NCBI GenBank assembly: GCA_964603685.1
Contig: CAZRWF010000005.1
Location: forward strand, 2,721 to 66,720
Source of the DNA: an uncultured Chitinophagaceae bacterium
Lineage (GTDB): Bacteria; Bacteroidota; Ignavibacteria; UBA10030; UBA8401
Length of the DNA: 64,000 nucleotides
Reading direction: 5' to 3'
Part shown: piece after piece, positions 334 to 62,000 of the stretch
How positions within the stretch are numbered: position 1 is the first letter of the stretch
Layout: each line of letters opens with the position of its first letter
Made by a program: the position numbers and the translations under genes
The notes under the pieces: generated by a model
What the model was told of the DNA's origin: nothing
Database searches by the model: none
Seen by the model: the letters and a program-made list of their open reading frames with translations, nothing else

Positions 334-344
334 TCGGGCAACTC

Positions 345-3149: not shown

Positions 3150-3635
3150 TTACGATATTTTTATTTCATTGATCGTTGCAACCGCATATGCCACAGCTCC
3201 TTCGCCGACGCCGATAAAACCCATTCCTTCATTTGTCGTTGCTTTTACGGAGACGGCATGAATGCTCACACCGAGAATTTCTGCGATGGTCGTTCGCATT
3301 TGATCGACGTACGGAGCGATCTTCGGCCGTTCCATGACGACCGTTGTATCGATATTTCCGACTGCGTATCCCTTTGATCGCAATAATGCGACAACATTTG
3401 CCAGCAGATTGCGGCTGGAAATTCCCTTAAATGCGGGATCGGTGTCGGGAAAATGTTTACCGATATCTCCCATCGCAGCCGCTCCCAATAAGGCATCACA
3501 TATTGCATGCAGGAGAACGTCGGCGTCCGAATGCCCCAGTAGTCCGGACTCAAACGGTATTTCCACGCCACCCAGGATCAATTTCCTTTCCCGGGCAAAT
3601 CGATGAACATCAAATCCCATTCCGATTCGGGTCAT
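3150..3635 (-). CDS. ispF: 2-C-methyl-D-erythritol 2,4-cyclodiphosphate synthase
   Basis: Motifs GMGFDVHRF and [12 protein letters not shown] use the internal start [11 protein letters not shown] (3635) because the longest ORF (to 3689) would overlap the upstream acylphosphatase by 53 nt. Confidence 0.9.
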
Positions 3636-46094: not shown

Positions 46095-46116
46095 CGGAAT
46101 ACGATTGAGCGCTCCG

Positions 46117-47799
46117 TTAATTGATCGTTGCTTTATACGTTATCGTTCCGGCGGCCGATTGACCGGCGATTGATCCGATCGTCACCGTGATCCGTTTTTT
46201 CCCTTCGACCGTCGTCACCGATACTTCGTCGCCGTCCGCCGCATCGGTCTTCGCGACCCCACCCAGCGTGACGGAATTCGACACATAGGTCATATTCTCC
46301 GCCTCCGTTTCGGCAATCAGAACGTTGTATGCTTTACCGTGACCGGTATTTTGATATGTAACGGTAAATGTCATTTCCGATCCCGGAGGTTGATTCCCGG
46401 AAGGAAGGACGCTTCGGACCAGTACGATCGACGGTATATTGATCGTCGTGGTCGCATTGGCGCTTTGAAATTTGGACTGGTCGAACGACGACTTGACGGT
46501 GAATGTCGTCACATCCTGCGTTTGATCCCCAGAAACGAGCGGGACGATTAACCGGGCCAGCACTTTAACACTGTCGTATGCCGCAACGGAATCGACATCC
46601 ACACCGCCGGCCGCATTCGTGTTCGTCAGCGCCACATCGCCGGTATTCCACACGCCGTTACCGTTGACATCCTTAAAATACGTCCACGTATAACTTTTGG
46701 AGGAACTGTATTCCATTTCCAACACGTCTTTCGCATTGCCGATGTTCTTCACCGTGAAGGGATAATACAACGTGTCTTCCTGTTCCTTCGCTGCGGTAAC
46801 AACCAGCGGAGAAATTTCGACCCCTCGAATGACACCGACCGCAGCAGAGGGATTATTGGAATGGACGGTAAACGTCACACCGCCGACCGTATAGGTGACG
46901 GCAATCGTGTTGTTCAACACCGAACCGTTGGAAAGTCCGCTCAAAACCTGCAGTGTAATCGAGACCGTCACCGAACTTCCGGGATTGATCGTGCCGATGT
47001 TCCAGAGGATCGGATTGGAGGATGTATTCACCGTTCCCGAGGTTGAAGTCGCGGAGACAAAAGAGAATAATGATGTGTTGAACAAATCGCTGAACGACAC
47101 TCCCGTGGCCGCCACGCTGCCATTGTTGGTCACGGTCATCGTATACACAACATTATCACCCGGCGAAGGATTGGTGGGGGTGACGGACAATCCCGAACTG
47201 ACATTCGAAAAATTGGCCGTATTCACCGTCGTACGCGCCTGGGACGTATTGGTCTTGTTTCCGTCGAACTGCGATGTCGCGGTGATCACGGTGGTGTCGA
47301 CCTGTCCGTTCAACGACGCATCGCGCGGCGTGAAGATGCGGAGAAAGACTTTATAGGTCCCGTCCGCAGCGATTGCCGCTGTCTGCGTGACCGCTCCGGC
47401 ATTGATCTCCGATGTTTGTAGAATGCCGTCACCGTTGCTGTCCACATAGAAGGAACGTGACCAGGACTTGGACGAAACGGACGAAAGCGTAAACTGATCG
47501 CTGCCGTTTCCGGAGTTCGTGATTGTCACCGGGTATTCCGTAAACACGCTGTCCCGCGACGTTGTTTTCGCATTGGTGGCGGGGGAAATATTTACGGAAG
47601 CGATTTGGGCCACAACAAAGTTGATGTAATTCGAGTACACCGTATCGACGCGTGCGCCGCTGGCGGTCGAATACGTCACCTTCGATCGGGTTTGAATTTG
47701 CGTCCCCGCCGGCGTTCCGGCGGCCTGCAGAAAATGTATGCCGGCGAACACCAGCAAGCATCCCCAGATCCGCCAATGAGCGGTAGTCATGATTTTCAT
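46117..47799 (-). CDS. 560-aa secreted DUF11/CARDB-like repeat protein (paralog B)
   Basis: Colinear with paralog A and, by eye, roughly 40-45% identical over the first 150 mature residues (AAGTPAGTQIQTRSKVTYSTASGA...). C-terminal DUF11 module ends ...GTITYKATIN. Confidence 0.7.
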   Translation of the reverse strand: MKIMTTAHWRIWGCLLVFAGIHFLQAAGTPAGTQIQTRSKVTYSTASGARVDTVYSNYINFVVAQIASVNISPATNAKTTSRDSVFTEYPVTITNSGNGSDQFTLSSVSSKSWSRSFYVDSNGDGILQTSEINAGAVTQTAAIAADGTYKVFLRIFTPRDASLNGQVDTTVITATSQFDGNKTNTSQARTTVNTANFSNVSSGLSVTPTNPSPGDNVVYTMTVTNNGSVAATGVSFSDLFNTSLFSFVSATSTSGTVNTSSNPILWNIGTINPGSSVTVSITLQVLSGLSNGSVLNNTIAVTYTVGGVTFTVHSNNPSAAVGVIRGVEISPLVVTAAKEQEDTLYYPFTVKNIGNAKDVLEMEYSSSKSYTWTYFKDVNGNGVWNTGDVALTNTNAAGGVDVDSVAAYDSVKVLARLIVPLVSGDQTQDVTTFTVKSSFDQSKFQSANATTTINIPSIVLVRSVLPSGNQPPGSEMTFTVTYQNTGHGKAYNVLIAETEAENMTYVSNSVTLGGVAKTDAADGDEVSVTTVEGKKRITVTIGSIAGQSAAGTITYKATIN

Positions 47800-47823: not shown

Positions 47824-48909
47824 TTATCGAACCACTGCTTTGAATGAAACAATCCCCTCTTCACCCGGGAGAATTTTTTTCGTGATTTTCCATTGAATCG
47901 AGATGACCGCCGATTGTTGCGGAGGTGTCACCGTCGACCGGACCACGGTAATCTCGCAATCCTCCCCTGCCGCGGAATTTTCCACGTACGTCATGTTTGC
48001 GGGGACATCATTGGTGATTGTCGCATCCTGTGCGAACGCCGTGCCGATGTTGTGGTAGAGAACGGAATAGGTAACCGTATCCCCCGGAAAGGGATTCATA
48101 CGATCGGCCGAATTGATCAACGCCAGCTCCGTTGTTTCTTTTTTGGAACTGTTCATCACCTCCAGATGCGAAGCTTGGATGGCCGATTTTTCAAAATTTT
48201 TCACCGTTGTCGCATTCACGCGGAAGGACAACACCTCGGTTTCCGCTCCGGCGGAAGAGACATTTTCGGACGACACCACAACGGTTTTTCCCGGTCCTTT
48301 TTGTTCTCCCGCTGCGGTCGTGACTGCCGTTCCGGCAATGCCGGAGATCAGCACAAACGGATAATCCGCCTTCCCCTTTTCCACCCGTGTCGTCAGCACT
48401 CCGTTTGCACCGACCGGGCGGAGATATCCGTCCCCGAACAGTGTGAGCATGGCGGAATACGTTTTGTTGGGAACAGATTTTACTTTCAGCGCAACGGTCA
48501 CCGTTTTCCCGAGCGGCATCGTTTCATCGGCAACGATATTGGATTCCCACGTAACGGTCACGGCATTTGCCCCTGTGCCGGAAGAGTACACTGCGGTTGT
48601 TTTCAGGCCGGTCGATTGGACTTTAGCTTTTGCCGCAAAATCTTTCGCCGTAACGGAAAGAATCGTCTTCTGCCCCTCGTTGAGCCGTAAAAAAACGAAC
48701 GATTGATCGGTGTTATTCGAAAGCCAGAATCCGAATGTCGATTCCTCTTTCGGATTTTTGACGGGCCGGACAACCGCAAAGGCGATCTTCCCGCTTTTCG
48801 TTTTACCCGGAGTATTCACTTGCAGCTGATAGTCATGCAGCTTCAATTGCGTACCTTGCGAAAACGCCAATGAGCTGACAATCAAACTCACGATGAGGAA
48901 TGTTTTCAT
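47824..48909 (-). CDS. 361-aa secreted protein: unique N-terminal about 255 aa plus a C-terminal DUF11 module
   Basis: Signal peptide MKTFLIVSLIVSSLAFSQG. C-terminal PFPGDTVTYSVLYHNIGTAFAQDATITNDVPANMTYVENS...GIVSFKAVVR. AGGAG 7 nt upstream. Confidence 0.65.
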   Translation of the reverse strand: MKTFLIVSLIVSSLAFSQGTQLKLHDYQLQVNTPGKTKSGKIAFAVVRPVKNPKEESTFGFWLSNNTDQSFVFLRLNEGQKTILSVTAKDFAAKAKVQSTGLKTTAVYSSGTGANAVTVTWESNIVADETMPLGKTVTVALKVKSVPNKTYSAMLTLFGDGYLRPVGANGVLTTRVEKGKADYPFVLISGIAGTAVTTAAGEQKGPGKTVVVSSENVSSAGAETEVLSFRVNATTVKNFEKSAIQASHLEVMNSSKKETTELALINSADRMNPFPGDTVTYSVLYHNIGTAFAQDATITNDVPANMTYVENSAAGEDCEITVVRSTVTPPQQSAVISIQWKITKKILPGEEGIVSFKAVVR

Positions 48910-48925: not shown

Positions 48926-51900
48926 TTAGTTGACGATCGTTTTAAACTTTATTTGTTTGTATGATCCCGGTGACACCGTGGCAAACGTGACCGTGATGGT
49001 CGTTCCGGCAACGGTCACTTCGTCCCCATCCGAAGCATTCGTTTTTGCCGTACCGTTCACTTCGATCCCTTTGCCGACGTCGAATCCGTTCGCCAGAAAT
49101 GTGGTATTGGCGGGGATCGTATAGACCGCCGAGACCGATGTTGCGTTGGATGTACCGTTGTTACTGTACTTCAGCGTATAGACCAATGTGTCCCCGGGAA
49201 CAGGATTTTGATGACTGACCACATTGGTGTCGATGGAAATATTGGCAATGTTGGTGATCGCGATCGATGTCGAAACATCTTCCACGTTGGAACCGCCGAA
49301 ATCGATCTGCGCCGTATTGGCGATCGATTCCAACACATCCATCAGCGAATCGGTATTGGCGGTGAATGTCCGGGACGTGGATGCACCGCTCGCCAACGAG
49401 AAGGATGGCCATGTCACCGTACCTCCTACCAGACTGCCGTTTCCGTTGTTGACCCGCCCAGAAATATTGCCCCCGTTGCTGATGCTTCCGGACTTCAAAA
49501 TAAGGTTGTCATCGAGGGGATCGGTCACCACAATCGTCCCCTTGGTGACATTATACGGATTTGTGATCGATATAGTATAGAGCAAAGAATCCCCCGCGTG
49601 TGCGGTACCGCCGTTAATGTCGGACACGGTTTTGGACGAGACATTGGAACCGATGCCCCAATCCCCGACAATCGAAGAAGTAAGGCCTGATGATTCCACA
49701 TAGTTCGCCACGCTGTCAAAGGAGGTCGCGTTCCGATTTTGCCACGAAGTGCCGTATTGCCACAATTTCATTAATGTTTCATTCAAACTGTTCGCTTCAC
49801 TGTTTTCGTAATGCAGCCGCAGCGTGCTGGTCAATCCGCTGCCGCCGGTGATGGCGATGTTTACCGTCCTATCGACGGCGACAAATGTCGGCGAAGCAGG
49901 CGTTGCGGACGCGACCGTCATCGTCACCGAACTGGGAGGCGTACCGGCCGTGAACACTATGGTGGTATTCGGGCCTTCAAACGCGTACGGCGTAGATAAA
50001 GCGAATACATGCGTACGCGTGACCGTACCGAAAATTATTCCATTGCCGGTCCGGGTTCCGGTGATCGTCAACGTGTTGGCTCCGGTCGAAATCGTGCCGG
50101 AATTCATATCGACATTCACCGTTTGGATGTTTCCGGCAGCCGTTACGGTCGTGGCACTTTGCGTTTTATTCACCACAAGTTCATAAAATGTGGTAGCTCC
50201 GGTGATGGTCGATGCCGAACCGCCGGCAAACACAATTTTCGATGTAGCGGCGGCGAATGATCCGGTGGTGGTCCAATGGCCGTATACCGTATCGGTGGTC
50301 GCTCCTGCATTTAATGTGGTACCGGCTCCCACCGTTACATTTCCCATAATCCTCAACGCTCCGGCGATGGTTTTCGTCCCTCCCGTTGCCGTATGAAGAT
50401 TATTATAGAGAAAGGCAGGAATCGATTGTGCGCCGCTGCCGGAAAATTCGATCGTACTTCCGGAAACGACATATTCCCCTCCCGAAAATGTTGCTGCCGG
50501 AATAAATTGTTCGGCAATGCCGATCGTTCCGGAGGCGAGAGTCACCGCATTGGCGCCACGGCTGCCGCTCAGTTTTAGTGTATGGTACGCAAACGCCGGA
50601 ATGGTTTGCGCCCCTGTTCCGTTAAAATCGACGGCGCTGTTGGTGAAGGACAACGTTCCGCCGCTCATGGAAACTGCCAGCGTCCCGGCGATTCTCACCG
50701 TATCGCTCGGAGCAACGACAACAGTATTCCCCCCGCGTGCTCCGCTGATTGAAAGATGGTGATACGCAAACGGAACAATCGTCTGTGCTCCCGTTCCATT
50801 GTAAGCAATCTTGCTGCCGGAAACGATGTACCCGCCGGATGTGAAACTCGCCGCGATGTTCAAAGAATCGGCCACGCTGATCGTATCACCGGAAACCAAT
50901 GTCACGGAATTTGTCGTCCGTGCACCGCTGATGCGCAGCGAGTGGTAGGAAAACGCAGGAATCGTCTGTGCACCGGATCCGTTAAAGTCCACAATGCTCC
51001 CGTTCACGGCATACGATACCGATGAGGCGCTGATTGTCAGCGATCCCGCCACACCGATCGTATCGCTGTTCGCCATGGTGACCGTGTTGCCGCCGCGCGC
51101 ACCGCTGATTGTCATGTTGTGATAATCGAACGCCGGAACCGTTTGGGCACCCGCTCCGTTAAATTCGATCGTATTCCCCGTTCTCACATACGAACCGCCG
51201 GTAAACGTTGCGGTCGGAGTGAACGTACCGGAGACAGAAATTGTACCGTTCGGCAGCGTAACGGAATTATTTCCGCGGGCACCGCTGATTCCGAGATGGA
51301 CGTAGGAATTTGCTTTGACGGATTGTGCTCCGGTGCCGAAATAATTTACCGTATTGTTTGACGCAGAAGCCGTCAGCGTACCGGTCGCCAGCAACGTATC
51401 GCTCACGGCGAGCACGGCGCCGGAACCGTTTATCCAGGTCGATCCGGCGGCATCACCGATTAACCGTGCCATCGCAATGCTGCCGCTGTTCGTCACCGTA
51501 TTTCCGGATCCGATACGAACACGGTACAGCGTGTCGTTTGTCGCCGTCATCACTTTATTGGTTCCCGAGACGAACAATGTCGATGTGCCGGTCGTTTTTC
51601 CGCCGGTGCCGGAGAGCGTATCCTGGTCCGAATCGTTCCATCGAATCTGACCCGAACCGCTCCATTGTCCGCTGAACGCAAAATTGCCGTACAGATCAAG
51701 CCGGTATCCGCCGTCCGACAATTCCGCTCCTGAAGCGATCGACACGTTGGTGATTTCGCGGTCATCCACCAATGAAACGATGTGGGGACTTACGATAAAT
51801 ACTTTATCCCGCTTTTTGGGGACTTTGTTCAAATCCCATGTGGCGGCCGTCGACCAATTTCCGGTGACTACGGAAGTGTATGTTTCCGAACTCCCTTTTC

Positions 51901-54900
51901 CCACGGCAAATTCACTGAAGGAGGAGACGTTCATCGCCCGGACACTGGTGGATGTAATCACCCCGACTGTCGCGTCGCTCCACACGCCGTTATCTTTTTT
52001 AACGACCAGCATGTCCGAAAAATCACTGATACCGGCATCGACATCGCCGGCGATCCAATTGACCGTCATATTGTAGGAATCGAACACCGTGCCGTTATTG
52101 ATCACGATCCAATAACGGTTGACGGTGGAATCGGCAAACACACCGGCATTCGCAACATCCGGATGATCCCCGTTGACGGTTTTTGCCGTCACATATCCGG
52201 CGTTCGATACTGTTCCGAATGATATAGTCACGGGGAGATAATTCGAGGAGGAGCCGATCGCATACGTGATCGAGTCTGATCCCGGGGTGAAATACCGTTT
52301 TAAAAATCCGTTCACGTATCCGGACGTACGCGTCAACGATCCGGTGGAGGTGATCGTGACCGAATCCGACGTCGCCGTGACGATGCCGTTCGTCAACGTC
52401 AACACGCCGTTCACGATCATATCGTCCGACAACGTGATACCGTTCGACGTATTATTCAATTCCATATTTGTGAACGATCCCGTCCCCGCAATCCTGTGCT
52501 CACTCGTGCCGTTGAACAAAATTTTTCCCGCTCCGGTGTGCGCACCGTCGTTCTGGATGCTATCCTTCACGGTGATCGTAAAGCCGCCGTCGGCAAATGT
52601 CGCGCCGGCGCCGATGGTCAAATTCTGATCGACGATCATTCCGGCAGCGGCTGTTTTTGTTCCGCCGCCGCTGATGCGGAGACTATGATAGGTGTGTGCC
52701 GTGACCGTTTGTGTTCCACCTGAAGAATCATACCCGAATGTTCCGCCGACCAACGAAACCGTTCCGGCGACGGTAGGAAAGGCACCGCGTGTGCTGACGA
52801 TACCGCTGTATTGCGTAAAATTACCGCTCACCGACAACGTCTTTCCGGCAAGAATGGTCACACGCGCCGTATCGTTATGGACGATCAGATCGTTGCAGTA
52901 GGCGTCCACATTCACCGTGATCGTATCCTTACCGTCGAACACGATATGGTTCCCCGACGTCGGGACACTATGCGAACTCCAATTGTAATCATCTCCCCAG
53001 TTGTACGTTCCAGCCCCTTTCGTCCAATAAAACGTCAACGAAGCTTCACCGACCGCAAAATCGCCGAATCCCGTAATCCCGGTTGTTTTTGTACTGGTGG
53101 AATTTCGCACGTTGATCGTGGAAGGACTCCATGTGGTGTTGTACCGTTTTACGAAGAAGTACGCCGTATTGGCACCCGCATCGATATCGCCGGCAACAAA
53201 ATTGAACGTCGCATCATACGTACTGAAAGTCAATCCCGCACCGGATAATGTGTAGAACCGGTTCACATCTTTATATTCATCGAGTCCGGAATATTTCACC
53301 TGCGGATGATCCACCGCTGTTTGGCTCGCCATAACCGTTCCACCGACGCTCACCGATTGGAAAGTCAATTCGACGGGAGTGTAATTCGTCGCATCTCCGA
53401 CTTGGAACGTATAGGTTTGCGGGGACCCGCTCACTCCGATGGTCTTTTGGAGAAATCCGTGCACATGTCCCGCCGTTCGCGATGTCCCCGGGAAGACGGA
53501 ACAGGAAATAACGTTGCTGCCGGTGGTCATCACGCCGGACGTGAGGACCAAAATGCTGTCGACGGTGAAGTTCGCATTGACAGTTGCCCCGTTGATATCG
53601 TTCAGTTCGAGAATTCGGAACGAGCCGCCGCCGGAAATCTGATGCGCCGAGGAACCACCGGCGAGGAGAGTTTTCCCGGTACCGGAGCCGGTATTGACGG
53701 TGTTGTTGGAAATATTCCCTTTCACTGTGAGCGTATAGATACTGTCGCTCAGCGTCGCCCCGCTGATCGACAGATTGCCGTTCACCGTGGCATTTCCCGA
53801 CAACTTTTTCCAATTGCTTCCGCTGACGGTAAGATGTTGATAATAGGCCCAACCGTTGACGGTCTGCGGCGAAGTTCCGTTAAAATCGATCGTATTTCCG
53901 GTGAGGGTATGACCGGTCGCCGTTCCCGGCGTGAACACCGATGCGATCCCGACCGATGACGGAAATGTTTTGTTGAAATTACTCAGAATCAGATTTCCGT
54001 AATTTCCCGGCAATATATTCTGTCCGTTCGACCCTTTGCTATAATTCACCGTTCCGATCGCATCGCTGGAGATCGTTCCGGACGTCACTGCGGTCGCATT
54101 GGCGATATATAAGGTCATTGTACCGACACCCAAATTACCGGCAACGAGTTTCAACGAGTCGGTCACCGTCAACGAATCGGACATGTTAACACCGGCACTA
54201 TTGTTGATTTCCAACTTGTTCACCGTTCGTGCCGTGGGAGTGGTGGTGAACACCCCCGTGGATTGGAGCGCGCTTCCGGCAAAAATATAATTTGCCAGAC
54301 TGCTGTACGTCCGCGTTCCGGTCACCTGAACATTTCCGGTTGCACCGGCGGAGGTGATGCCGTCAACGGACGACGATTCGAGCGTGCCGTTCACCAAAAG
54401 GGTGAACGATCCGCCGCCGCTCAATACACTGGAACCGGCGAATGCGAGCCAGGAACCGCTGTGCACACGGTAATTGACCGTATTGGAGACGGTCCCTCCG
54501 GACGTGTATACTTGACGGGAAGTTCCGTTAAAGACGATGGTGCCGGACCCGGTACTCGTTTCGGTGATCACTCCGGATGTATGCGTAAAATTCCCTCCGA
54601 CTTTCAAACTATCCACCGAAGCGGAACCGCTCAGATTCAACGAGTCGCCGGACATCAGAACGCTCCCGGAAACCGTCAAATGGACGGCAGCCGTGGACGT
54701 GGTGACAAACCGCAATGTGCTGCCGGTTCCGCGCACGACGAGACTGTCGCCAATCGTCACCGTGTACGCCGTCGCTCCGGTCTGTTTCATTAGCACTTTG
54801 CTTGTTCCCTCCACTTTAAAACTTCCGCCGATGGTCTTGGATGCGGCCGTATTATTGTTGATCAGCAATTGCTGTCCGTTGGTGTTCAACACCTCAAAAT

Positions 54901-57900
54901 TTCCGTTCACCGTTACCGGATTTCCCGCCAGCGCAATCACGGCGCTTTGCGCGGCATTGTTCCAGACGAAATTTCCGAACGTCTGCGCAAGACTCGTCGG
55001 TACGGTATTGGTCGTACCGGTGATCTCCACCGTTGAATTCGCATTCCACGTGGTGGTCATTCCGACATTGATCGCACTGCCATTCACGTCATGGATATAC
55101 TTCCCGCCGCTCATATACACCGCCGAGGGTCCGCCGTTGACGCTGAATGTTCCGGCATCCCATTTCACCGTTCCATACACGGTCAGATCCGTACCGGCAC
55201 CATTCCGAATTTGCAGTGTGCCGCCCGTTCCGATCACCAACGTCCCCCCTTCTTCCACCACAATCTGGTCCTGTCCGTTCGTCACACCGGAAAGATTGGT
55301 GGTGACCGTCACCGTATGCCCGTTTCGAATCGTAATTTGCCCGCTGGCCAGCACCGGCGAAGAGACGGCGTTCACCCAATTCGTTCCGTCGAAGCGTTCC
55401 CAGACATTGGTGAAATCATTCCATGTCCCGGATCCTTTGGAGCGAAAAGCGTTGTTCGCATCGCGCAATCCGATGATATAGATACCCAAGGAGTCGATCC
55501 CGAGCGCTTGATTGGTCGTCGTAGTTCGTGTTCCGGCCGTTGTACTATCCCAGAACGAACCATTATACCAGTTCATCCGGAATGTGGCTGATCCTGCTAT
55601 ATCACAATCACCTGCCACATAGGTAAGAGTTAGGTTGTATCCGCTCGCCGTGTTATAGACAAGATCGGAATATCGGGTCTGCCAATAGCGATTGACATTA
55701 TCCGCTGGATTGACGAACGACGTTGCGGATTCCGGATGCTCTTCGGCGACTGTGGAGACGGTCAACGTTCCGGCAACAGAAACGGAGGCAAAAACGAATT
55801 GTGCCGGCGTATAATTATTGCCTGTTCCAATCTCGTACGTAACGGTGACATTCGATCCGGTTCCGACAGATTTTTTCAACCATCCGGTAACATGTCCTGA
55901 GTTCCGCGAAACTGTTCCTGATGACGAAATAATGACGGTATCGGACGCATTGGTGATGTTACCGTTGAGCAATCGTAACGTTCCGTTGATCGTCATATTA
56001 CCTGTCAGTGTGATCCCGTTGGCGTTGTTCACTTTCAGATTGGTAAAGGATCCTCCGCCGCTGATGCTTTGAGCAGTTGATCCGGACAGATCGAGATAAT
56101 TCGTTCCGTTCTGCGTTCCATTATTGATCACATTACCCAAAACGCGCATCGTGTCGGCACTCGAGACGGTCAGGGTTACGGAACCACCGATCGTCAATGT
56201 TCCGGTGACGGTATCGGCACCGGATTGTTGGGTTTTTGTTCCGGAAGTACTGAGGGTAAGATTATTATAGAGGAACGAAGGAATATTTTGCGCTCCCGAA
56301 CCGTTAAAATCCATTGTATTGCCGGTGATAGTATGTCCGGCGGCTGAACCGGAAGTAAAGACGTTCGCAACCCCGACAACTCCTGCGGGAAGAATTTTCG
56401 TAAAATTACTGAATGTTAAATTGCCGTAGTTCATCGCCAGCACGGTTTGACCATTGCTGCTTTGATTATAATTGATCGTTCCGGTGGCAGCACTGGTGAC
56501 CGTTCCGCCGGATGAAACGTTACCATTAAGCGTGAGCGTATTGGTTTGGATATCCATCGTTCCGGAAAGCACGGCGAACGAATCCGAAACGGTGACGCTG
56601 TTCTGAAGTGTGAGCGTACCGGAAGATTTGCTCACGGTCAATTTATTGAATGTTTCACCCGATGGGTCGATCACCGATTGAGCACCCGTTCCGTTGAACG
56701 TTACTTTTCCCGCACCGGGGGTGAACGTTTGACTGTTGTTTTCCCAATGCCGCGCGACGCCAATGTCCAATCCGTTCGCGTTCAGTGTTCCGGCAGTGAT
56801 GGTGAGATCGTTCAAGACCGTCAATCCGTTCGTGATCAGTTGCGCCGTCGCATTCGAGCTGTTGACGACAAAATTATAGACAGGAATGGAAACGTTCACT
56901 CTCATCGTTTGCGCCGCCGGAGTCAAACCGGTGTATCCTATTTGAACCGTTCCCCCGGTTACCGAATAGCTCGTAAAGCCCGACAACACAAATCCCAGAT
57001 CTTCGGCACCGGTTCCTCCTTCTTTTTTCACGATTATCGTACCGCCGCTCATAACAAAATTGGATCCGGCGAGACTGATGTTAAACGGAGCGTAGGTGGC
57101 GGACGTACTTCCCGAATCGGCCACGATCATCGTGCCGCCGGTCATCGTCAAATCGGTGATGACGTACGCATTGTTCGGAATAAATCCGCCGCGCACCAGA
57201 ACTGTGCCGCCGTTGATCGTGAAGGCGCCGCCGGACGAGATCAAATTGTGTCCGGTGTTGTTTCCGATCGTGACCGTACCGGCCTGAACGCGAAATTCAC
57301 CGGCAACCGTCAGACTCCCTCCCGTTGTGGATAAAGATGCCGAGGCATGATTGACGCGGATCCCTCCGCTCGAAGGAATCGAAGCGGCGGCGGTGAACGG
57401 TGTTACCGACGCACCCGTCGCCAGATTGAACGTTCCGTTCGTCAAGGTCAAAAAATTCGTCGTCGAAACCGAAAAATTCGTCGCAAAAATATCCAAAATA
57501 TTCGAGCGGGACGTACCCATATTCAATGTCATCAAATAGAATCGGGTGGAATCGCCGTTGCCGTTGACGGTCTGTGTCCCATTTTTATTGAAGGTCACGG
57601 CACACCGGCTGTCCGCATCGGTCGCCATGACGAACCGTCCGCTGTTGGCAATGTTGCCGGAAACCGTCAGCGTATGTGACGAGGTGTTCGAAACGCCGTT
57701 CACGCGAAAGACGGCGCCGGCATTCACCGTCACGTTGCCGATCACCGTGATGCTGCGCGCGGTGTTGTCGTCCCCGATTAACAGCGTTCCGCTGGCCCCC
57801 TGACCGACGGTGAGACTATTCACCGTCACAGTCGAATCGATCACAATCACGGTTCCGTCCGCAATGGTCGCGTTGTCCGAAATTCCCGGAACCACACTGG

Positions 57901-59032
57901 TGGACCACACGGCAGGATTTTTCCATGAACCGGACGTGATGGTGTACGGCGCTCCGGCGGAAAGGGTGGCCTGATTTCCCGCCAATGCTGTGCTTAACCG
58001 GCCTTCGTTCACCGCGTAGACTTTAAAATAGTACGTCGTTCCGGCGAGTAATCCGGTTGCAGCGTAGGATGTTGCATTGGCCGCCGTTTGGCCGAGAAAA
58101 TTGTACGTCGCTCCTCCGTCATCCGAGCCATAAACGGCAAATCCGACTTCATTCCATAACGTATCGACCCAGTTCAACGTCATGCCGGTCTGTGACACAC
58201 CGGTGAACGTTAATGTATGCGGTGCATTCATATCCGGCGGCGTAAACGTCAACCGGGATCCGGAGGCCGGCATCGTTACCAGATTGTGCGTTTCGGTCGC
58301 CGAAAACGTGGCGGTGTTTGCGGTCTGTTGCACCTGCAACTGGTCCGGCTGTGCCGTTCCACTCATGGTCGGACCGTTAATACCGATCGTATACGTGAAG
58401 CCGAAGGTCCCCTGATTCATCGTGGAATAATTGTATTCGATCACCCCGGAACTTTCGTACAATTTCGCCTGGAAGTTCAAATCGGGTGTCGTATTCCCGT
58501 ACACCGCCATGCTGATCCATTCCACGGTCAGGACTCTGTTCGGAGCGACGCCGGTGACGGAATATTTGATACCGTCACCCAAAGGATCGGTGCCGCCGTC
58601 CGTCGTCAAGTCGTCGTAAAAAGGTGCCAGAGCGGTCAGAGTTCCGGTGGTTCCGGAAAATTGTGCGTTCACATAACTGTAGGCCCCGCCGTCCGGACCG
58701 CCGAGCGCCGTCGAAGAAGAAAAGTCGATAAAACCGTTGGTCGAAACAGAAAAATGCGTGTACCGAACACCGCGGTACCAAAAATCAAATCCGATCTCGA
58801 TCTGAAAACTGCGGTTGTCGTCCAAATTAAAATTTCCGTTGGAGCTGTTTCGCCAATTCGGGACCGATGATCCGGTGAGATCAATACTGTTATACGTGTT
58901 GCCGGTGGTGCGGGCGACCGTATATCGCGCGAGGGTTTGTCCCATTACGATCGTTGATGCCGCAAGAGACAACAAGGCGGCAACGGTGATCCACCGTGTT
59001 TGCCCTGTCCTATAAATGCTCTTTTCGTTCAT
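48926..59032 (-). CDS. Giant 3368-aa secreted protein: NIDO-like N-terminal domain, Fn3, repetitive beta-helix-like modules, C-terminal DUF11 modules
   Basis: Uninterrupted 10.1 kb ORF with a signal peptide. NIDO-like IGFDFWYRGVRYTHFSVSTNGFIDF (about 58418-58825). Fn3 (about 57992-58231). Many G/T/S/N-rich repeats of the form ..FNG.GAQ.IP.F.Y..L.ISG. Ends ...GSYKQIKFKTIVN. Confidence 0.8.
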   Translation of the reverse strand: MNEKSIYRTGQTRWITVAALLSLAASTIVMGQTLARYTVARTTGNTYNSIDLTGSSVPNWRNSSNGNFNLDDNRSFQIEIGFDFWYRGVRYTHFSVSTNGFIDFSSSTALGGPDGGAYSYVNAQFSGTTGTLTALAPFYDDLTTDGGTDPLGDGIKYSVTGVAPNRVLTVEWISMAVYGNTTPDLNFQAKLYESSGVIEYNYSTMNQGTFGFTYTIGINGPTMSGTAQPDQLQVQQTANTATFSATETHNLVTMPASGSRLTFTPPDMNAPHTLTFTGVSQTGMTLNWVDTLWNEVGFAVYGSDDGGATYNFLGQTAANATSYAATGLLAGTTYYFKVYAVNEGRLSTALAGNQATLSAGAPYTITSGSWKNPAVWSTSVVPGISDNATIADGTVIVIDSTVTVNSLTVGQGASGTLLIGDDNTARSITVIGNVTVNAGAVFRVNGVSNTSSHTLTVSGNIANSGRFVMATDADSRCAVTFNKNGTQTVNGNGDSTRFYLMTLNMGTSRSNILDIFATNFSVSTTNFLTLTNGTFNLATGASVTPFTAAASIPSSGGIRVNHASASLSTTGGSLTVAGEFRVQAGTVTIGNNTGHNLISSGGAFTINGGTVLVRGGFIPNNAYVITDLTMTGGTMIVADSGSTSATYAPFNISLAGSNFVMSGGTIIVKKEGGTGAEDLGFVLSGFTSYSVTGGTVQIGYTGLTPAAQTMRVNVSIPVYNFVVNSSNATAQLITNGLTVLNDLTITAGTLNANGLDIGVARHWENNSQTFTPGAGKVTFNGTGAQSVIDPSGETFNKLTVSKSSGTLTLQNSVTVSDSFAVLSGTMDIQTNTLTLNGNVSSGGTVTSAATGTINYNQSSNGQTVLAMNYGNLTFSNFTKILPAGVVGVANVFTSGSAAGHTITGNTMDFNGSGAQNIPSFLYNNLTLSTSGTKTQQSGADTVTGTLTIGGSVTLTVSSADTMRVLGNVINNGTQNGTNYLDLSGSTAQSISGGGSFTNLKVNNANGITLTGNMTINGTLRLLNGNITNASDTVIISSSGTVSRNSGHVTGWLKKSVGTGSNVTVTYEIGTGNNYTPAQFVFASVSVAGTLTVSTVAEEHPESATSFVNPADNVNRYWQTRYSDLVYNTASGYNLTLTYVAGDCDIAGSATFRMNWYNGSFWDSTTAGTRTTTTNQALGIDSLGIYIIGLRDANNAFRSKGSGTWNDFTNVWERFDGTNWVNAVSSPVLASGQITIRNGHTVTVTTNLSGVTNGQDQIVVEEGGTLVIGTGGTLQIRNGAGTDLTVYGTVKWDAGTFSVNGGPSAVYMSGGKYIHDVNGSAINVGMTTTWNANSTVEITGTTNTVPTSLAQTFGNFVWNNAAQSAVIALAGNPVTVNGNFEVLNTNGQQLLINNNTAASKTIGGSFKVEGTSKVLMKQTGATAYTVTIGDSLVVRGTGSTLRFVTTSTAAVHLTVSGSVLMSGDSLNLSGSASVDSLKVGGNFTHTSGVITETSTGSGTIVFNGTSRQVYTSGGTVSNTVNYRVHSGSWLAFAGSSVLSGGGSFTLLVNGTLESSSVDGITSAGATGNVQVTGTRTYSSLANYIFAGSALQSTGVFTTTPTARTVNKLEINNSAGVNMSDSLTVTDSLKLVAGNLGVGTMTLYIANATAVTSGTISSDAIGTVNYSKGSNGQNILPGNYGNLILSNFNKTFPSSVGIASVFTPGTATGHTLTGNTIDFNGTSPQTVNGWAYYQHLTVSGSNWKKLSGNATVNGNLSISGATLSDSIYTLTVKGNISNNTVNTGSGTGKTLLAGGSSAHQISGGGSFRILELNDINGATVNANFTVDSILVLTSGVMTTGSNVISCSVFPGTSRTAGHVHGFLQKTIGVSGSPQTYTFQVGDATNYTPVELTFQSVSVGGTVMASQTAVDHPQVKYSGLDEYKDVNRFYTLSGAGLTFSTYDATFNFVAGDIDAGANTAYFFVKRYNTTWSPSTINVRNSTSTKTTGITGFGDFAVGEASLTFYWTKGAGTYNWGDDYNWSSHSVPTSGNHIVFDGKDTITVNVDAYCNDLIVHNDTARVTILAGKTLSVSGNFTQYSGIVSTRGAFPTVAGTVSLVGGTFGYDSSGGTQTVTAHTYHSLRISGGGTKTAAAGMIVDQNLTIGAGATFADGGFTITVKDSIQNDGAHTGAGKILFNGTSEHRIAGTGSFTNMELNNTSNGITLSDDMIVNGVLTLTNGIVTATSDSVTITSTGSLTRTSGYVNGFLKRYFTPGSDSITYAIGSSSNYLPVTISFGTVSNAGYVTAKTVNGDHPDVANAGVFADSTVNRYWIVINNGTVFDSYNMTVNWIAGDVDAGISDFSDMLVVKKDNGVWSDATVGVITSTSVRAMNVSSFSEFAVGKGSSETYTSVVTGNWSTAATWDLNKVPKKRDKVFIVSPHIVSLVDDREITNVSIASGAELSDGGYRLDLYGNFAFSGQWSGSGQIRWNDSDQDTLSGTGGKTTGTSTLFVSGTNKVMTATNDTLYRVRIGSGNTVTNSGSIAMARLIGDAAGSTWINGSGAVLAVSDTLLATGTLTASASNNTVNYFGTGAQSVKANSYVHLGISGARGNNSVTLPNGTISVSGTFTPTATFTGGSYVRTGNTIEFNGAGAQTVPAFDYHNMTISGARGGNTVTMANSDTIGVAGSLTISASSVSYAVNGSIVDFNGSGAQTIPAFSYHSLRISGARTTNSVTLVSGDTISVADSLNIAASFTSGGYIVSGSKIAYNGTGAQTIVPFAYHHLSISGARGGNTVVVAPSDTVRIAGTLAVSMSGGTLSFTNSAVDFNGTGAQTIPAFAYHTLKLSGSRGANAVTLASGTIGIAEQFIPAATFSGGEYVVSGSTIEFSGSGAQSIPAFLYNNLHTATGGTKTIAGALRIMGNVTVGAGTTLNAGATTDTVYGHWTTTGSFAAATSKIVFAGGSASTITGATTFYELVVNKTQSATTVTAAGNIQTVNVDMNSGTISTGANTLTITGTRTGNGIIFGTVTRTHVFALSTPYAFEGPNTTIVFTAGTPPSSVTMTVASATPASPTFVAVDRTVNIAITGGSGLTSTLRLHYENSEANSLNETLMKLWQYGTSWQNRNATSFDSVANYVESSGLTSSIVGDWGIGSNVSSKTVSDINGGTAHAGDSLLYTISITNPYNVTKGTIVVTDPLDDNLILKSGSISNGGNISGRVNNGNGSLVGGTVTWPSFSLASGASTSRTFTANTDSLMDVLESIANTAQIDFGGSNVEDVSTSIAITNIANISIDTNVVSHQNPVPGDTLVYTLKYSNNGTSNATSVSAVYTIPANTTFLANGFDVGKGIEVNGTAKTNASDGDEVTVAGTTITVTFATVSPGSYKQIKFKTIVN
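50390..51360 (-). repeat. In-frame tandem array of about 5.3 degenerate copies of a 177-183 nt (59-61 aa) unit inside the giant gene
   Basis: The landmark ccgctgat recurs at 50742, 50925, 51102 and 51282, with the variant ccgctcag at 50565. Protein unit: F(N/S)G.GAQ(T/S)(I/V)PAF.Y(H/N).(L/M).ISGARG.N.VT............(G/S).Y...G..I. Confidence 0.75.
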
Positions 59033-59056: not shown

Positions 59057-62000
59057 TTATTTGTGAAAATAATTCAAAATCTTTTCGGTGAATTTCGCAC
59101 GAACCGACAGGAACGGTCCGGCCGATTGATAGTCGCGTCCGACGAGGTCTTTGTCCTCGGTGCCGACAAAATTGTATCCAACGGCAAAGCGGAGATTTTC
59201 GAACACCACATTGCCGATCTCCGCACTGTATCCGTGTTTCGCCGATTGAGAATTGGCCTGTCCGGCAATACGGGAACTCAGGATCCGGTATTCCGCCGCA
59301 ACATCGAAGCTGTTCCAGCGCAAGTCGTATTCCGCCCGGAGCAGGTAGAAATCGGTCACGGCTGATGCCGACAGGCCGTAGGCCTCATCCGTCGCATATT
59401 TGAGCGCATACTTGGTGCCGATTTCCAAACCGAAAACCGGTTCGATGAAAGTATGGAGCGAAACGATATCCGCGGAGGAGGAGGTGTTCGGCATAACGAC
59501 GCCGTTCCGTTCGATTCTCTTTTCATACTTGCCGATCGCATTCAGCCAATCCATTTCCGTCGGACGGTAGGCGATGCCGATCGCATTATCGAACTTGGAG
59601 AGCGTGCCGCTTCCGGCCGGCGTTCCGATCTGTTGCGCCGAAAGGACGCCATCGGAGAAAGTGGACGACGGCGTTTGCGGAGCGATTCTCTGTTCCACAT
59701 AATACGTGAATTTGTCGATCACGGTAAAGTCGTTCGCCAATCGGATGTCACCGGCGAAGGAAAGGTTCTTTCTCACCGCTTGGGTATTTTTTGCATACTC
59801 CCCTTTAATCGTCGCTTTGTACGATTCTTTCGGCAGATATTCCAAACCTAACGAAAGTGCATCATTGTCGTTCGTCTTCGCTTCCGCCAGTTGGCGATCC
59901 AACGCACGAGTCCGTTCGAATGCCGCATTGGCCGTCACTTCTTCCGACAATTTCGTTGTGTTCTTTAAGCCGATGCTCGCCTGGTTCCGTTTGCCGTTGA
60001 TTCCGTTACCGATTTCGTACCGGCCGGTCATCGTCGTTCCGTATCCGAGTTCCGATCCGACGCCGAAGATGGTGGAACTTCCGCTGCCGATATAGAAACG
60101 CTGCTGTGCGGACAGCGTTATGTCGTCCGTCACCCGGTATTCCGCGCCGATGGCTGCGCTGGAGGGTGTGATCTGTTCTTTCGCCGAACTGCTGATACTT
60201 TGTTCGTATTCACCGGTCAGGTTAATCCGATCGTTCGCGCGTACGGTCGTTTTCGCGTTGATCAACGTCGATTGTTTCGTGTCAACCAACGCTGTATCCA
60301 TGCGGGCGCTTTCGTATCGCAGATTTTCCGCACGGAGTGCGATGGTGGCAAAACTGCTGATCTTCCGTTCCGCACCGCCGGTGATGGAATGAACGTTCAC
60401 AGAGGCGTTACCGCTCGTTTGTTGTTGGGAATAAAAATCCGCCATGAGTTTTGTCTCAAACAGTCCGTCATACACACCGCCCACGCCGTATTTCGTCGAA
60501 CCGAGTTCTGCAGCACCGCCGGCTCCGGCCGTTTGGTTGACGAAACCGGATTCCACTTTGCGGAAATACGATTTCACTTGCATCCGGTCGATCGGTGCAC
60601 CGCCGAGTTCGATTTTCCACGCCGCACCGCTGTTCGACACGTCAGAGCCGTGTGCCACTTCCACATTCGTTTGCAGGCGGTCGGCATACGAATACCGCGT
60701 ATACACGCCAAGCACGGTGTAATTGGTCGGCATCCGTTCTTCCGTCACCGCCGTCGCGCCGATCGTCCACCCTTTCAGAATCCGTTGTTCTGCCTGCACG
60801 CCGGTGACGTAGTTCGTCGGGAAACCCGATTGAGATTCGTACGAAACGACGATGTACACCGGATTTCCCGCTTGATCGATGCTGTTCACCGGTTGTTTGA
60901 AGAACAATGTTCCTTGAACGTAGTCGATCTCATAATCACCGAAGCGGGATTTTTCGGCACGGTTGACGATCACTTCATTGTGCCGTTTGTCGCGCGTTTC
61001 GATTCTGATTTTTTCCGAACCCGGAACAACGTTGCTCACACCGAGGAAATAATATCCCGAAATACCTTGTCCGCGGATCTCATCCTGCACCACTTTCCGG
61101 TCAGTGACCGTCGCAAATACATCCGCTTTGCCGGTGCGCGATTCATAATGACCGCTGATGCCGGTGAATGTCCGGTCGTACCGGGCCAGTTCGTTCTGAC
61201 CAAACGCCGTATTAAAATCGCCGAACATCAGATACGAACGGTTCAATTCCAATTTGAGGAAGAACGGATTGCTTGTCTGTGCCGTATAGTCCACGCGACT
61301 GTTGTCGCCATAGATGGAATAGAGCACATCCGGATCAAGATCGCGGAAGAGCCGGTCCTTCTGGCGGCGTTGATTGTCGAACGAAGCCGTCAGAAGATAT
61401 TTTTCCATCACGGTTCCCCGTCCGTAGAAGGCGAGGCGTCCTTCGGAATGGAATCCGTCGTCGATGGCCGACCGGTTTTTGATTCCGGTAAGATTGCCGG
61501 AAGCGGACAACAGCGATCCTTCGGCATCCGCGGAACCGACGATCATCAACGGCACGATCGGTGTCGTAAATTCGATCTCTTGTGCAGCGGAGACATTACC
61601 CCACGATGCGGCGATGGTGGAAACAAGCGATGCGGAGGGAGACTGAATGCCGAACCGTACTTTCCCGCTGTCAATTCTCACTTGAATGCCGTCCTGATTC
61701 GGATCCACATCCGTCGCGACAATTCCGGCGGTGTCGCTGGTAAGGGTCACATGGTACATTCCGGGAATGATGACGCCGAATTTGTCTTTCACAATCGCTT
61801 CGAACGAAGACGTGGTGCGTCCGTCCGCAACAAATGCATTCGCCGCGGAGACGATGTCGATCGCGTGCGGTTCACCGGCGACATGCATCCGCACGGTATC
61901 CGTTTCCGGGAACAATCCGTGCGCAACGACCGCAAACGTTACCGGGCCTTGTTCGACGGCGATATTCAGGAAATCATGGACTCCGTCCGGACGAACCGTA

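Follow-up and report, generated by a model that had tools for sequence, protein, structure and literature searches.

The window analysed here, a stretch of 64,000 nucleotides from an uncultured Ignavibacteria-type bacterium, contains an operon of seven genes on the minus strand; the product of one of them is a rod-like surface protein of very great length (Table 1). Adjacent genes are separated by gaps of 16-48 nt or overlap by 4 nt, and the operon is conserved in five other species-level assemblies; synteny of the downstream partners holds in L001/L022 and L024 and, in part, in L023, L025 and L026. The orthologues of g577, whose true start is placed outside the window, begin with ...SFA|AGTRAGTLLTSTATINYND. 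The 154 homologues of g1045 are all labelled 'hypothetical', and this protein matches nothing known. Among the operon proteins no Pfam match to PapD-like chaperone or Usher families was found.

An earlier note, made from the sequence alone, had described a single 10.1-kb reading frame of 3368 aa. The gene is real, and nearly all of the features described in that note lie where it had placed them. Full-length, colinear orthologues of 3373-3384 aa (61-67% identity, 100% query coverage) are present in four independent metagenome assemblies. The residue count agrees with the description of a G/T/S/N/V-rich protein with few charged residues: T, G, S, V and N contribute 14.6, 12.3, 11.1, 8.8 and 8.4%, D, E, K and R together 9.8%, and there are four Cys. 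As Table 1 shows, a head domain is followed by an Fn3 domain, four capped right-handed beta-helix segments, a complete CLIPPER domain and a CLIPPER domain that ends after its penultimate strand.

Table 1. Features of the giant protein and its operon partners; nucleotide positions are those of the window.
Feature	Residues	Nucleotides	Strand	Remarks
Giant-protein ORF		48926..59032	-	3368 aa, ATG start
Signal peptide	1-31	58940..59032	-	sequence; predicted signal peptidase I cut VMG|QTLARY, giving N-terminal Gln
Head domain	32-268 (237 aa)	58229..58939	-	all-beta, divergent NIDO-superfamily (supported by A1 alignment, AF2, hhalign)
Fn3 domain	270-347	57992..58225	-	Pfam PF00041, E 5e-7, 30.3 bits (cut-off 25)
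Beta-helix segment 1	~360-1039	55916..57955	-	W-rich G8-like cap SGSWKNPAVWS...
Sandwich A	1040-1195	55448..55915	-	NYTP, EHP, VNRYW, GDCDIAG; A4 profile E 7e-57
Beta-helix segment 2	1196-1849	53486..55447	-	cap GTWNDFTNVWERFDGTNWV
Sandwich B	1850-1998	53039..53485	-	NYTP, DHP, VNRFY, GDIDAG, FGDFAVG; A4 profile E 2e-59
Beta-helix segment 3	1999-2230	52343..53038	-	cap FYWTKGAGTYNWGDDYNWS, weak Amnionless-N/G8-like match
Sandwich C	2231-2384	51881..52342	-	NYLP, DHP, VNRYW, GDVDAG, FSEFAVG; AF2, A4 profile E 1e-65
Beta-helix segment 4	2385-2984	50081..51880	-	cap TGNWSTAATWDLNKVP; holds the 59-61-aa repeats
59-61-aa repeat run	~2566-2880	50393-51337	-	within segment 4
~145-aa domain	2985-3128	49649..50080	-	at the place of a fourth sandwich; ..LRLHYENSEANSLNE..MKLWQYGTSWQ..
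CLIPPER/DUF11 domain 1, complete	3133-3245	49298..49636	-	candidate isopeptide triad K3134, D3171, N3239
CLIPPER domain 2, truncated	3260-3368	48929..49255	-	ends ...SPGSYKQIKFKTIVN* directly after penultimate strand
g577		62243 to beyond 64000	-	upstream partner; true start outside window
g1045		59057-62194	-	upstream partner; weak Big_1 match and ~800 aa of putative barrel-like sequence
g361		47824-48909	-	downstream partner
g560		46117-47799	-	downstream partner
g557		44421-46094	-	downstream partner
g1579		39685-44424	-	downstream partner; Pfam DUF11 x4, SdrD_B, OmpA_C

The signal peptide noted earlier comprises residues 1-31. Its predicted cleavage site is followed by a mature start, A/G-Q-(S/T)-x-A-x-Y, which is kept across the orthologues in alignment A1. 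The head behind it contains the NIDO-like core F.IEIGFDFWYRGVRYTHFSVSTNGFIDF...LAPFYDDL; DD, GFDF.Y.G, NG, the D of APFYDD and an R, Q, E, G and Y are invariant in the same alignment. AF2 modelled the head with a pLDDT of 82.8 and a pTM of 0.87. A fold search of the PDB with this model gave no match (best E 0.078, TM<=0.25), so the NIDO question was settled by profiles. Pfam NIDO (PF06119, gathering threshold 25 bits) did not match residues 31-268 even at E<=10, and had no match anywhere in the genome; a direct Pfam assignment was thus dropped. Two distant members of the head family score just 19-22 bits against the same model, over profile positions 3-53. When the A1 profile was aligned by hhalign with four bacterial NIDO domains that pass the Pfam threshold, the result was a probability of 97.7% and an E-value of 2.2e-12 over 123 columns. 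Furthermore, the A1 HMM matches 16 of 20 NIDO-bearing ORFs from the same phylum at E<=1e-3 (Z=1e6), with E-values from 1e-21 to 1e-5. The profile comparisons support the assignment of the head as a divergent NIDO-superfamily domain that falls below the Pfam cut-off.

Members of PF06119 include nidogen, MUC4 and alpha-tectorin, plus bacterial proteins. The core common to these and the giant's head is DD...GFxFxxYG..Y....(I/V)s.NG.i.F ... APF(W/Y).D ... FQv.l, whereas the C-terminal 'GDMQWTTG' part of the classical domain lies beyond the 123 aligned columns and is absent from the head. The head also differs in coming from a far larger uncurated family, here mostly of bacterial surface proteins, with 19,135 clusters at 50% identity and often several copies. 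Its partner domains in the sample scanned are typical of bacterial surface proteins, T9SS tails among them. The earlier wording, a 'eukaryote-like NIDO-type' domain, is therefore apt in its second half and misleading in its first, as the family that contains the head is bacterial and very large. The head ties the animal NIDO domains of nidogen, MUC4 and tectorin to a huge bacterial radiation that could be used for the study of structure and function; no match to its NIDO-related fold was found here among solved structures. Both the head family and the terminal sandwich described below are abundant and lack a curated model; their structures are now modelled with confidence and their boundaries defined.

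One Fn3 domain had been placed at about 57992-58231, which is where Pfam finds it to within a few nucleotides. A sequence search of the whole giant against the PDB returned fibronectin matches only (fibronectin and FN3con). For the remainder of the rod we modelled one unit (residues 1996-2386) with AF2. The model (pLDDT 93.3, pTM 0.89) is a capped right-handed parallel beta-helix followed by a beta-sandwich, in keeping with the long beta-solenoid or fibre that had been proposed. Its rungs are short and three-stranded, with regular strands of 3-4 residues between model residues ~30 and 205. The fold neighbours of this unit are weak (tailspikes, EspC and Ag43), and a viral fold library gave generic beta-helix matches only. 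The other units are assigned to the same predicted fold by homology or composition. In segment 1 the cap has a weak Pfam G8 match (residues 376-429, E 0.0033) and a self-BLAST shows homology between residues 790-1039 and the modelled helix; residues 360-790 would be beta-helix to judge from composition and cap only. Residues 1599-1809 of segment 2 align with 790-1000 in the self-BLAST, and the N-terminal half of this segment is presumably helical as well.

A right-handed parallel beta-helix that serves as a long rigid spacer is known from beta-helix adhesins and rods such as Ag43, pertactin and EspC, from TpsA/FHA proteins and from phage tailspikes, and in these too the number of repeats differs between relatives. 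Unlike them, the giant has no translocator barrel or TPS domain, its helix is split into four capped segments by sandwich domains, and the structural matches are weak.

Segment 4 holds the run of 59-61-aa repeats that had been seen by eye. The mark GxGAQ(S/T)(V/I) recurs at residues 2566, 2626, 2685, 2746, 2805 and 2865, a spacing of 60, 59, 61, 59 and 60. The repeats are beta-helix rungs, and the self-BLAST pairs them with the helical portions of units 1-3. They are old, with 55-63% DNA identity between units; the longest exact word in common is 13 nt. TRF reported no tandem repeats in the gene, and a tandem-repeat hot spot or recent slippage at the DNA level was thereby ruled out; copy number among orthologues still varies, from 0 to 16.

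The first three beta-helix segments each end in a beta-sandwich of 150 aa with the pattern NYxP...DHP...VNRYW. The earlier note had counted at least three super-modules with such a core, and the VNR(Y/F)(W/Y) motifs are indeed found near the positions it gave (residues 1113, 1923 and 2304, i.e. nt 55696, 53266 and 52123), with NYxP, (D/E)HP and F(G/S)(D/E)FA in register across the three units. A module length of 350-380 aa did not hold: from cap to sandwich the units measure 836, 803, 386 and 744 aa. The three units are 35-45% identical, and their BLAST similarity is confined to the C-terminal ~390 aa of each. The ~145-aa domain after segment 4 is kept in orthologues, and the self-BLAST pairs its beginning with that of sandwich C; as the A4 profile fails to detect it as a fourth sandwich (E 1), the domain was left unassigned.

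Of 301 genomes sampled from the phylum, 61 contain the terminal sandwich. The best fold matches of this sandwich in the PDB, albeit weak, are to GAIN subdomain B and the ZU5-UPA (FIIND) domains: sandwich C matches 4dlo (prob 1.0, E 0.049, 166 columns, rmsd 4.9 A) and 7crw (prob 0.98), and 8oek, 6m3p and 8hc0 are further matches. The last strand of the sandwich, SF(S/G)(D/E)FAVG, recalls the strand that is cleaved in these domains. However, the E-values range from 0.04 to 0.7, there is no sequence similarity, and neither a conserved His nor a Ser/Thr/Cys nucleophile is present; the +1 residue is mostly Gly, with Ser in unit 3 only, and the cleavage motif HL|T or (H/S)F|S is not conserved. Autoproteolysis of the GAIN/FIIND kind was therefore rejected as a general feature of the sandwich. 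Matches of the sandwich profile to titin Fn3 over 50 residues in PDB sequences were judged spurious.

The two DUF11-type modules of the earlier description were both recovered by Pfam and NCBIfam at the C-terminus (PF01345, 25.6 bits with a threshold of 24.6; TIGR01451, 38.5 with a threshold of 24), the second of them truncated. Domain 1 alone covers positions 9-97 of Pfam DUF11 and 15-119 of DUF7619 and has a weak TIGR04226 match. Its K3134, D3171 and N3239 sit in the expected motifs and are, by motif alone and by analogy with 9IFR, a candidate isopeptide triad. Domain 2 stops at a pattern that matches the penultimate strand of complete domains. It has neither the first-strand Lys (ISIDTNVVS instead) nor the Asn-bearing last strand, and Asn is the last residue in 25 of 34 orthologues. 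The end-points of DUF7619 separate truncated from complete domains, whereas those of Pfam DUF11 by themselves do not. A search of the C-terminal 244 aa against PDB sequences gave compositional matches to internalin LRRs and did not retrieve 9IFR.

Such an end is shared by five proteins of the operon: the giant, g577, g361, g560 and g557 all terminate in a CLIPPER domain without its last strand. In four of the neighbours, the mature N-terminus is conserved across 5-6 species to a much higher degree than the remainder of the chain. Those of g577, g560 and g557 carry a hyper-conserved AGT(P/R)AGTxIQSRSRVxY, and that of g1579 a hyper-conserved QTAPNTxITNQAKAxYQY. We appended these peptides to the truncated C-termini and scored the chimeras against Pfam DUF7619. 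The C-terminus of the giant alone scored 17.9 bits; with the peptides of g560, g557, g1579 and g577 the scores were 24.0, 26.5, 27.1 and 25.0 bits, and with peptides from orthologues 25.1 and 25.9 bits. The match of domain 2 reaches positions ~57-100 alone and 118-121 only when a neighbour's peptide is appended. A reversed peptide gave 17.6 bits and six shuffled peptides gave 17.0-17.7 bits. Comparable increases were obtained for g557 (17.4 to 31.3 bits), g560 (17.1 to 25.1 and 26.9) and g361 (15.8 to 22.9-27.0), and the N-terminus of g361 used as a peptide gave no gain. The gains are modest, 6-14 bits, and two unrelated, beta-prone N-termini gain 2 bits (20.0 with the giant). The test indicates that the peptides resemble the family-typical last strand; it speaks of resemblance and not of binding. 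What appears to be new at this locus is this pairing of five strand-less CLIPPER ends with four neighbouring N-termini that resemble the missing strand. A DUF11 match that ran through the TAA stop of g560 was discarded as spurious; beyond the stop it crosses the intergenic spacer and enters the start of g557 in the wrong frame.

The giant is an acceptor without a donor peptide, since the head takes up its N-terminus; in g1579 a donor peptide is present, and an OmpA peptidoglycan-binding domain stands in place of an acceptor. This asymmetry would fit a polar fibre joined by donor strands, with the giant at its tip. Whether the giant is a Sec-exported fibrillar surface protein at the distal tip of a multi-subunit fibre, built from the conserved seven-gene operon, is in our judgement evenly balanced. 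We propose more tentatively, and slightly against the balance, that it serves as tip adhesin in a Gram-negative surface fibre of a class so far undescribed, in which the N-terminal strand of each following subunit completes a strand-less CLIPPER domain in trans, a dedicated ~1000-aa protein provides passage through the outer membrane, an OmpA-anchored protein forms the base, and a 50-80-nm rod carries the NIDO-superfamily head.

According to this model, subunits would join by donor-strand complementation, with a logic like that of chaperone-usher systems but a CnaA-like fold. As the giant can only accept a strand it would cap the far end, and as g1579 can only donate one it would be the wall-anchored base; the putative 1045-aa outer-membrane protein g1045 would act as passage or platform. 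With ~22 residues to a rung, the beta-helix of ~2,170 residues would keep the head at a distance of some 50-80 nm from the cell, in a position to bind a putative ligand. Because the isopeptide Lys is missing from its last domain, the junction of the giant is probably non-covalent, and a covalent lock is not general, as four of the five acceptor domains lack the first-strand Lys; an isopeptide would be conceivable between g557 (Lys) and g1579 (Asn). Either g560 or g557 may also complement itself. The earlier view of the giant as the distal component of the locus gains weight from the finding that it alone combines a truncated C-terminal CLIPPER domain with the absence of a donor-like N-terminal peptide.

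The giant could instead be a stand-alone fibrillar adhesin or matrix protein, with DUF11 as an ordinary stalk, neighbours that are separate adhesins, and an unrelated route of export or retention. DUF11/CLIPPER domains are commonly stalks of single-chain adhesins, and in other FCB bacteria these repeats occur in many giants that are T9SS cargo as single proteins. Moreover, Pfam DUF11 matches often end near position 97-103 in internal domains too, so that model by itself does not reveal a truncation. We nevertheless regard this explanation as rather unlikely: the five terminal domains all stop at the identical structural point, the hyper-conserved N-termini of the neighbours score as the missing strand and their shuffled versions do not, the tight operon is conserved across species, and the donor/acceptor asymmetry would have to be a coincidence.

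That the giant travels as T9SS cargo, its last DUF11-like beta-sandwich serving as a C-terminal sorting domain (CTD) too divergent to be recognised, is improbable. The genome is rich in such cargo (111 matches to PF18962, none of them on contig C5), homologous repeat proteins elsewhere have PF18962, and CTDs are likewise beta-sandwiches of ~80-100 aa. Yet neither Pfam nor NCBIfam (PF18962/TIGR04183) finds a CTD in the giant, whose last domain scores as DUF11/TIGR01451 and is otherwise seen on its operon partners only; the two other NIDO-like proteins of the genome carry standard CTDs. The earlier note was thus right that the giant has no T9SS tail. The tail that it ascribed to the S8 protease (17563-21792) is unconfirmed, since that protein has no PF18962 match at E<=1e-3. 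Signs of type V secretion (C-terminal barrel, TPS, Omp85/POTRA) gave no Pfam or NCBIfam match in the giant or g1045.

Improbable, too, is a surface enzyme that degrades or binds polysaccharides, with the beta-helices as pectate-lyase or tailspike-like catalytic domains. The fold searches do return tailspikes, pectate-lyase-like proteins and an endodextranase, but these matches are weak (PDB E>=0.04, TM<=0.29; one viral-library match at E 1.5e-4), Pfam detects no catalytic family in the giant, acidic residues make up just 5.5%, and conservation falls on structural residues (G, W, Y, P, R). An assembly artefact, in which repeats collapsed or were chimerically joined into one long frame, is so unlikely that it can be set aside, although the source genome is a draft of 188 contigs and the gene has internal repeats: the four assemblies with colinear, full-coverage orthologues, repeat units that share exact words of <=13 nt at most, the empty TRF search and the uniform composition along the sequence all argue against it.

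Taken alone, the giant is another repeat-rich surface protein of an uncultured bacterium. If the fibre-tip model is correct, donor-strand polymerisation would have arisen here independently, with neither a PapD-type chaperone nor a known usher, and the tip subunit at this locus would be unusually elaborate. The donor/acceptor asymmetry makes a testable prediction of tip identity and of fibre assembly outside the T9SS in a T9SS-rich bacterium.

The features that define chaperone-usher subunits (a missing strand, donor extensions and a tip without an extension) are found here as an analogy of logic only. Like the giant, whose binding role is putative, the tip adhesins FimH and PapG have a binding head followed by an Ig-like domain without its last strand; the tip carries no N-terminal extension, the other subunits do, the pilus has a tip-to-base polarity, and among the genes of the operon is one for an outer-membrane protein, in the present case a predicted one. 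The incomplete fold here is the CnaA-like CLIPPER/DUF11 domain and not a pilin, however, and its complementation is a proposal from sequence patterns. Further differences are the chaperone and usher families missing from the operon proteins, the OmpA wall anchor of the putative base subunit, and the 3368-aa beta-helix rod, which makes the giant about ten times the size of FimH.

In fibrillar adhesins, including some with OmpA anchors, CLIPPER is well established as a building block of the stalk (bioRxiv 10.1101/2025.04.25.650565). B9T28_05395 from Acinetobacter silvestris (PDB 9IFR; same reference) resembles the present system in its DUF11/CLIPPER domains, its N-terminal putative adhesive domain, its Gram-negative surface location and its OmpA-type anchor, which is carried here by g1579. 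Head, stalk and anchor form one polypeptide in that protein, whereas here they are distributed over several; the stalk of the giant is a predicted beta-helix in place of CLIPPER repeats, and its last CLIPPER domain differs in the Lys and the Asn-bearing strand that it lacks.

The gene of the giant protein has 3368 open codons and an ATG start. T, G, S, V and N account for 55 % of the residues and D, E, K and R for 9.8 %, with four Cys; these counts bear out the earlier note, which described a G/T/S/N/V-rich protein with almost no charged stretches. The Fn3 domain claimed there was recovered with Pfam, and both claimed DUF11-type modules are present at the C-terminal end. The NYxP, (D/E)HP and F(G/S)(D/E)FA elements of its conserved core are in register with the three VNR(Y/F)(W/Y) sites. 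Self-BLAST resolved three units, 35-45 % identical, and a run of shorter repeats.

Beyond the giant itself, 33 orthologue-like proteins (P0002-P0034; 41-67 % identity) were found in other metagenome assemblies; the labelled contigs are named 'Ignavibacteriales bacterium' or 'Bacteroidota bacterium'. Four of them, with 3373-3384 aa, span 100 % of the query. The internal repeats share 55-63 % DNA identity with a longest common word of 13 nt, and Tandem Repeats Finder reported no repeats in the gene. Because full-length orthologues exist and the repeats are so dissimilar, an assembly artefact is unlikely. We are highly confident that the giant is real and that it is exported as a rod-like protein of the cell surface.

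Features of the giant and of its operon neighbours (g followed by the length in aa)
Feature	Nucleotides	Residues of giant	Strand	Basis or content
g577, first gene of operon, cut by window end	62243-64000			DUF11
g577 mature N-terminus	63950-64000
g1045	59057-62194			weak Big_1 match, ~800 aa putative barrel-like sequence
Giant, between g1045 and g361	48926..59032		(-)
Fn3 domain	57992-58225	270-347	(-)	Pfam fn3 match
VNR(Y/F)(W/Y) core	55696	1113	(-)	motif scan
VNR(Y/F)(W/Y) core	53266	1923	(-)	motif scan
VNR(Y/F)(W/Y) core	52123	2304	(-)	motif scan
Sandwich, unit 1	55448-55915		(-)
Sandwich, unit 2	53039-53485		(-)
Sandwich, unit 3	51881-52342		(-)
Domain in fourth-sandwich position		2985-3128		place in chain
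g361, g560, g557, downstream of giant				DUF11
g560 mature N-terminus	47715-47799
g557 mature N-terminus	46010-46094
g1579, last gene of operon				DUF11 x4, SdrD_B, OmpA_C
g1579 mature N-terminus	44300-44330

The long beta-solenoid or fibre expected in the earlier note agrees with an AlphaFold2 model of one unit, residues 1996-2386. This model, for which 26 orthologous and paralogous units were aligned, is very confident (pLDDT 93.3, pTM 0.89). It comprises a Trp-rich cap, FYWTKGAGTYNWGDDYNWS, with weak similarity to G8/Amnionless-N, then a right-handed beta-helix of short three-strand rungs, about 175 residues long, and a 150-aa beta-sandwich bearing the conserved core. The cap motif recurs at residues ~369, 1200, 2001 and 2389, one behind every sandwich; the giant is thus made up of four units, each running from cap to terminal domain, with lengths of 836, 803, 386 and 744 residues. 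The run of 59-61-aa repeats in the earlier note corresponds to GxGAQ(S/T)(V/I) marks from residue 2566 to 2865, spaced by 60, 59, 61, 59 and 60 residues. These repeats align in self-BLAST with the helical portions of other units, so each represents a block of about three rungs. Across 34 orthologues there are 0-16 such repeats and 2-5 sandwiches, which indicates that the giant has varied in length during evolution; the low DNA identity of the repeats speaks against a hot spot where slippage is still going on.

No Pfam model exists for the sandwich, and no PDB entry is related to it in sequence. The host genome has five copies: the giant carries three, and two ORFs of 2239 and 4698 aa carry one apiece. 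Of the 301 genomes sampled from the phylum, 61 have the sandwich, with a concentration in the order to which the window belongs. The domain in the fourth-sandwich position is not recognised by the sandwich profile. The helix part of the model gave fold matches to tailspikes, EspC and Ag43. GAIN and FIIND domains are autoproteolytic. The best fold neighbours of the sandwich are GAIN subdomain B and ZU5-UPA/FIIND, with a Foldseek probability of 0.98-1.0 yet E values of 0.04-0.07, and we treat this likeness as a lead only. No conserved nucleophile or His occurs at the corresponding sandwich strand, and cleavage is in general not predicted. The last strand in unit 3 reads SSF-SEFAVG, and most unit 3 orthologues retain F-S where units 1 and 2 carry L-G and F-G.

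Residues 32-268, the head, gave no Pfam match even at E<=10, and the NIDO model found nothing in the whole host genome. The AlphaFold2 model from an alignment of 25 head relatives is all-beta and confident (pLDDT 82.8, pTM 0.87); Foldseek found no counterpart among solved structures (best E 0.078, TM<=0.25). A profile search of 1.84 billion representative proteins returned 19,135 clusters at E<=1e-3 and 9,036 at E<=1e-10, in which the domain is frequently present in several copies per protein. Sampled members also carry T9SS tails, Fn3, cadherin, TIG and GEVED, and no Pfam model covers the head itself. Two distant members score 19-22 bits on PF06119 (cut-off 25). Of 301 genomes of the phylum, 21 have NIDO domains above the Pfam threshold, and the head profile matches most of the ORFs that carry them (at Z=1e6, E 1e-21 to 1e-5). 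Aligned by hhalign with four classical bacterial NIDO domains, it gave 97.7 % probability (E 2e-12, 123 columns). By these profile comparisons the head is a divergent NIDO-superfamily domain below the NIDO family's own threshold. Thus, of the 'eukaryote-like NIDO-type' domain claimed earlier, the NIDO likeness stands at the superfamily level only and 'eukaryote-like' does not. The giant contains two large uncurated domain families.

As the earlier note stated, the giant lacks a T9SS tail: Pfam and NCBIfam searches found no sorting domain in it, while the genome has 111 PF18962 matches. Two more proteins of the genome have NIDO-like heads (C47:7744-8412 and C132:444-1127, in ORFs of 1364 and 1448 aa), and both terminate in ordinary T9SS sorting domains (PF18962), so that one head type is associated with two export routes in one genome. 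By the criterion of defining domains, the giant is neither T9SS cargo nor an autotransporter nor a TpsA. The T9SS tail attributed to a protease elsewhere in the window was not found: the 1409-aa subtilase at 17563-21792 (Peptidase_S8 and FG-GAP repeats) has no PF18962 match at E<=1e-3, and the window's contig has none anywhere.

The giant lies in a tight co-directional gene block with gaps of 16-48 nt and one 4-nt overlap. Two other assemblies have all seven genes in identical order, and three more agree as far as the locus is visible in them. DUF11 is now called CLIPPER; it is a CnaA-like stalk domain, often with an isopeptide bond, and belongs to fibrillar adhesins, some of which have OmpA anchors (bioRxiv 10.1101/2025.04.25.650565). 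The C-terminal DUF11 domains of the giant, g577, g361, g560 and g557 all end at one common structural point. Where complete domains show '..W.IG.L.PG....V.F.V.V', the giant has '..ITVTFATVSPGSYKQIKFKTIVN*' and the neighbours have four equivalents; the last strand with its Asn, 'LNNTIAVTY' in a complete g560 domain, is absent from all five. The Pfam DUF11 match to the last g560 domain (46078-46398) overruns the TAA stop by 13 codons. We judge this extension, which enters the spacer and the out-of-frame g557 start, to be spurious; it shows how far the truncated domain falls short of the model end.

Peptides resembling the missing strand occur at mature N-termini: AGTPAGT(V/I)IQSRSRVxY in g560 and g557, AGTRAGTxLTSTATIxY in g577 and QTAPNTxITNQAKAxYQY, or QTAPNTxI(S/T)NQA(K/R), in g1579. 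They are almost invariant across 5-6 species, against 45-73 % overall protein identity. When neighbour peptides were appended to a truncated domain and the chimeras scored with Pfam DUF7619, those of g577, g560, g557 and g1579 raised the score by 6-14 bits and moved the match end from profile position ~57-100 to 118-121. The giant's complete internal CLIPPER domain attains position 119 unaided. One reversed and six shuffled peptides gave zero gain, as did the g361 N-terminus, and two unrelated N-termini gave 2 bits.

Uniquely in the operon, the giant has an acceptor (truncated domain) and no donor (N-terminal peptide), in line with the head model, in which its N-terminus is an integral strand. 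Unlike the other operon proteins, g1579 ends in OmpA and is a donor only. The simplest reading of this pattern is a polar fibre in which the giant would form the tip, the DUF11 subunits would lie between tip and base, g1579 would be the wall-anchored base and g1045 would provide outer-membrane passage. We give the tip role about an even chance; the assembly model adds moderate extra interest to the giant. Its acceptor lacks the isopeptide Lys (ISIDTNVVS), so that this junction is probably non-covalent; the one between g557 (Lys) and g1579 (Asn) could be covalent. The logic of the tip matches that of chaperone-usher pilus tip adhesins, but the fold differs, chaperone and usher families are missing from the operon, and the OmpA base and beta-helix rod are not those of such pili. 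We rate the giant as a variant among the fibrillar surface adhesins.

The g1045 family contains 154 proteins, all 'hypothetical' and uniformly 1000-1055 aa long, with occasional Big_1 or Invasin_D3 matches. Two long contigs each carry a pair of paralogues (P0289 and P0338, P0265 and P0347), so some genomes probably have more than one such locus. In orthologues of g577 (~620 aa) the start lies ~45 codons further upstream and opens a signal peptide ending in ...SFA before AGTRAGT..., and the ATG at 63976 is thus not the true start. The g557 stop and g1579 start overlap by 4 nt (44421-44424, ATGA-type), an arrangement suggesting that the last fibre subunit and the OmpA-anchored protein are translationally coupled.
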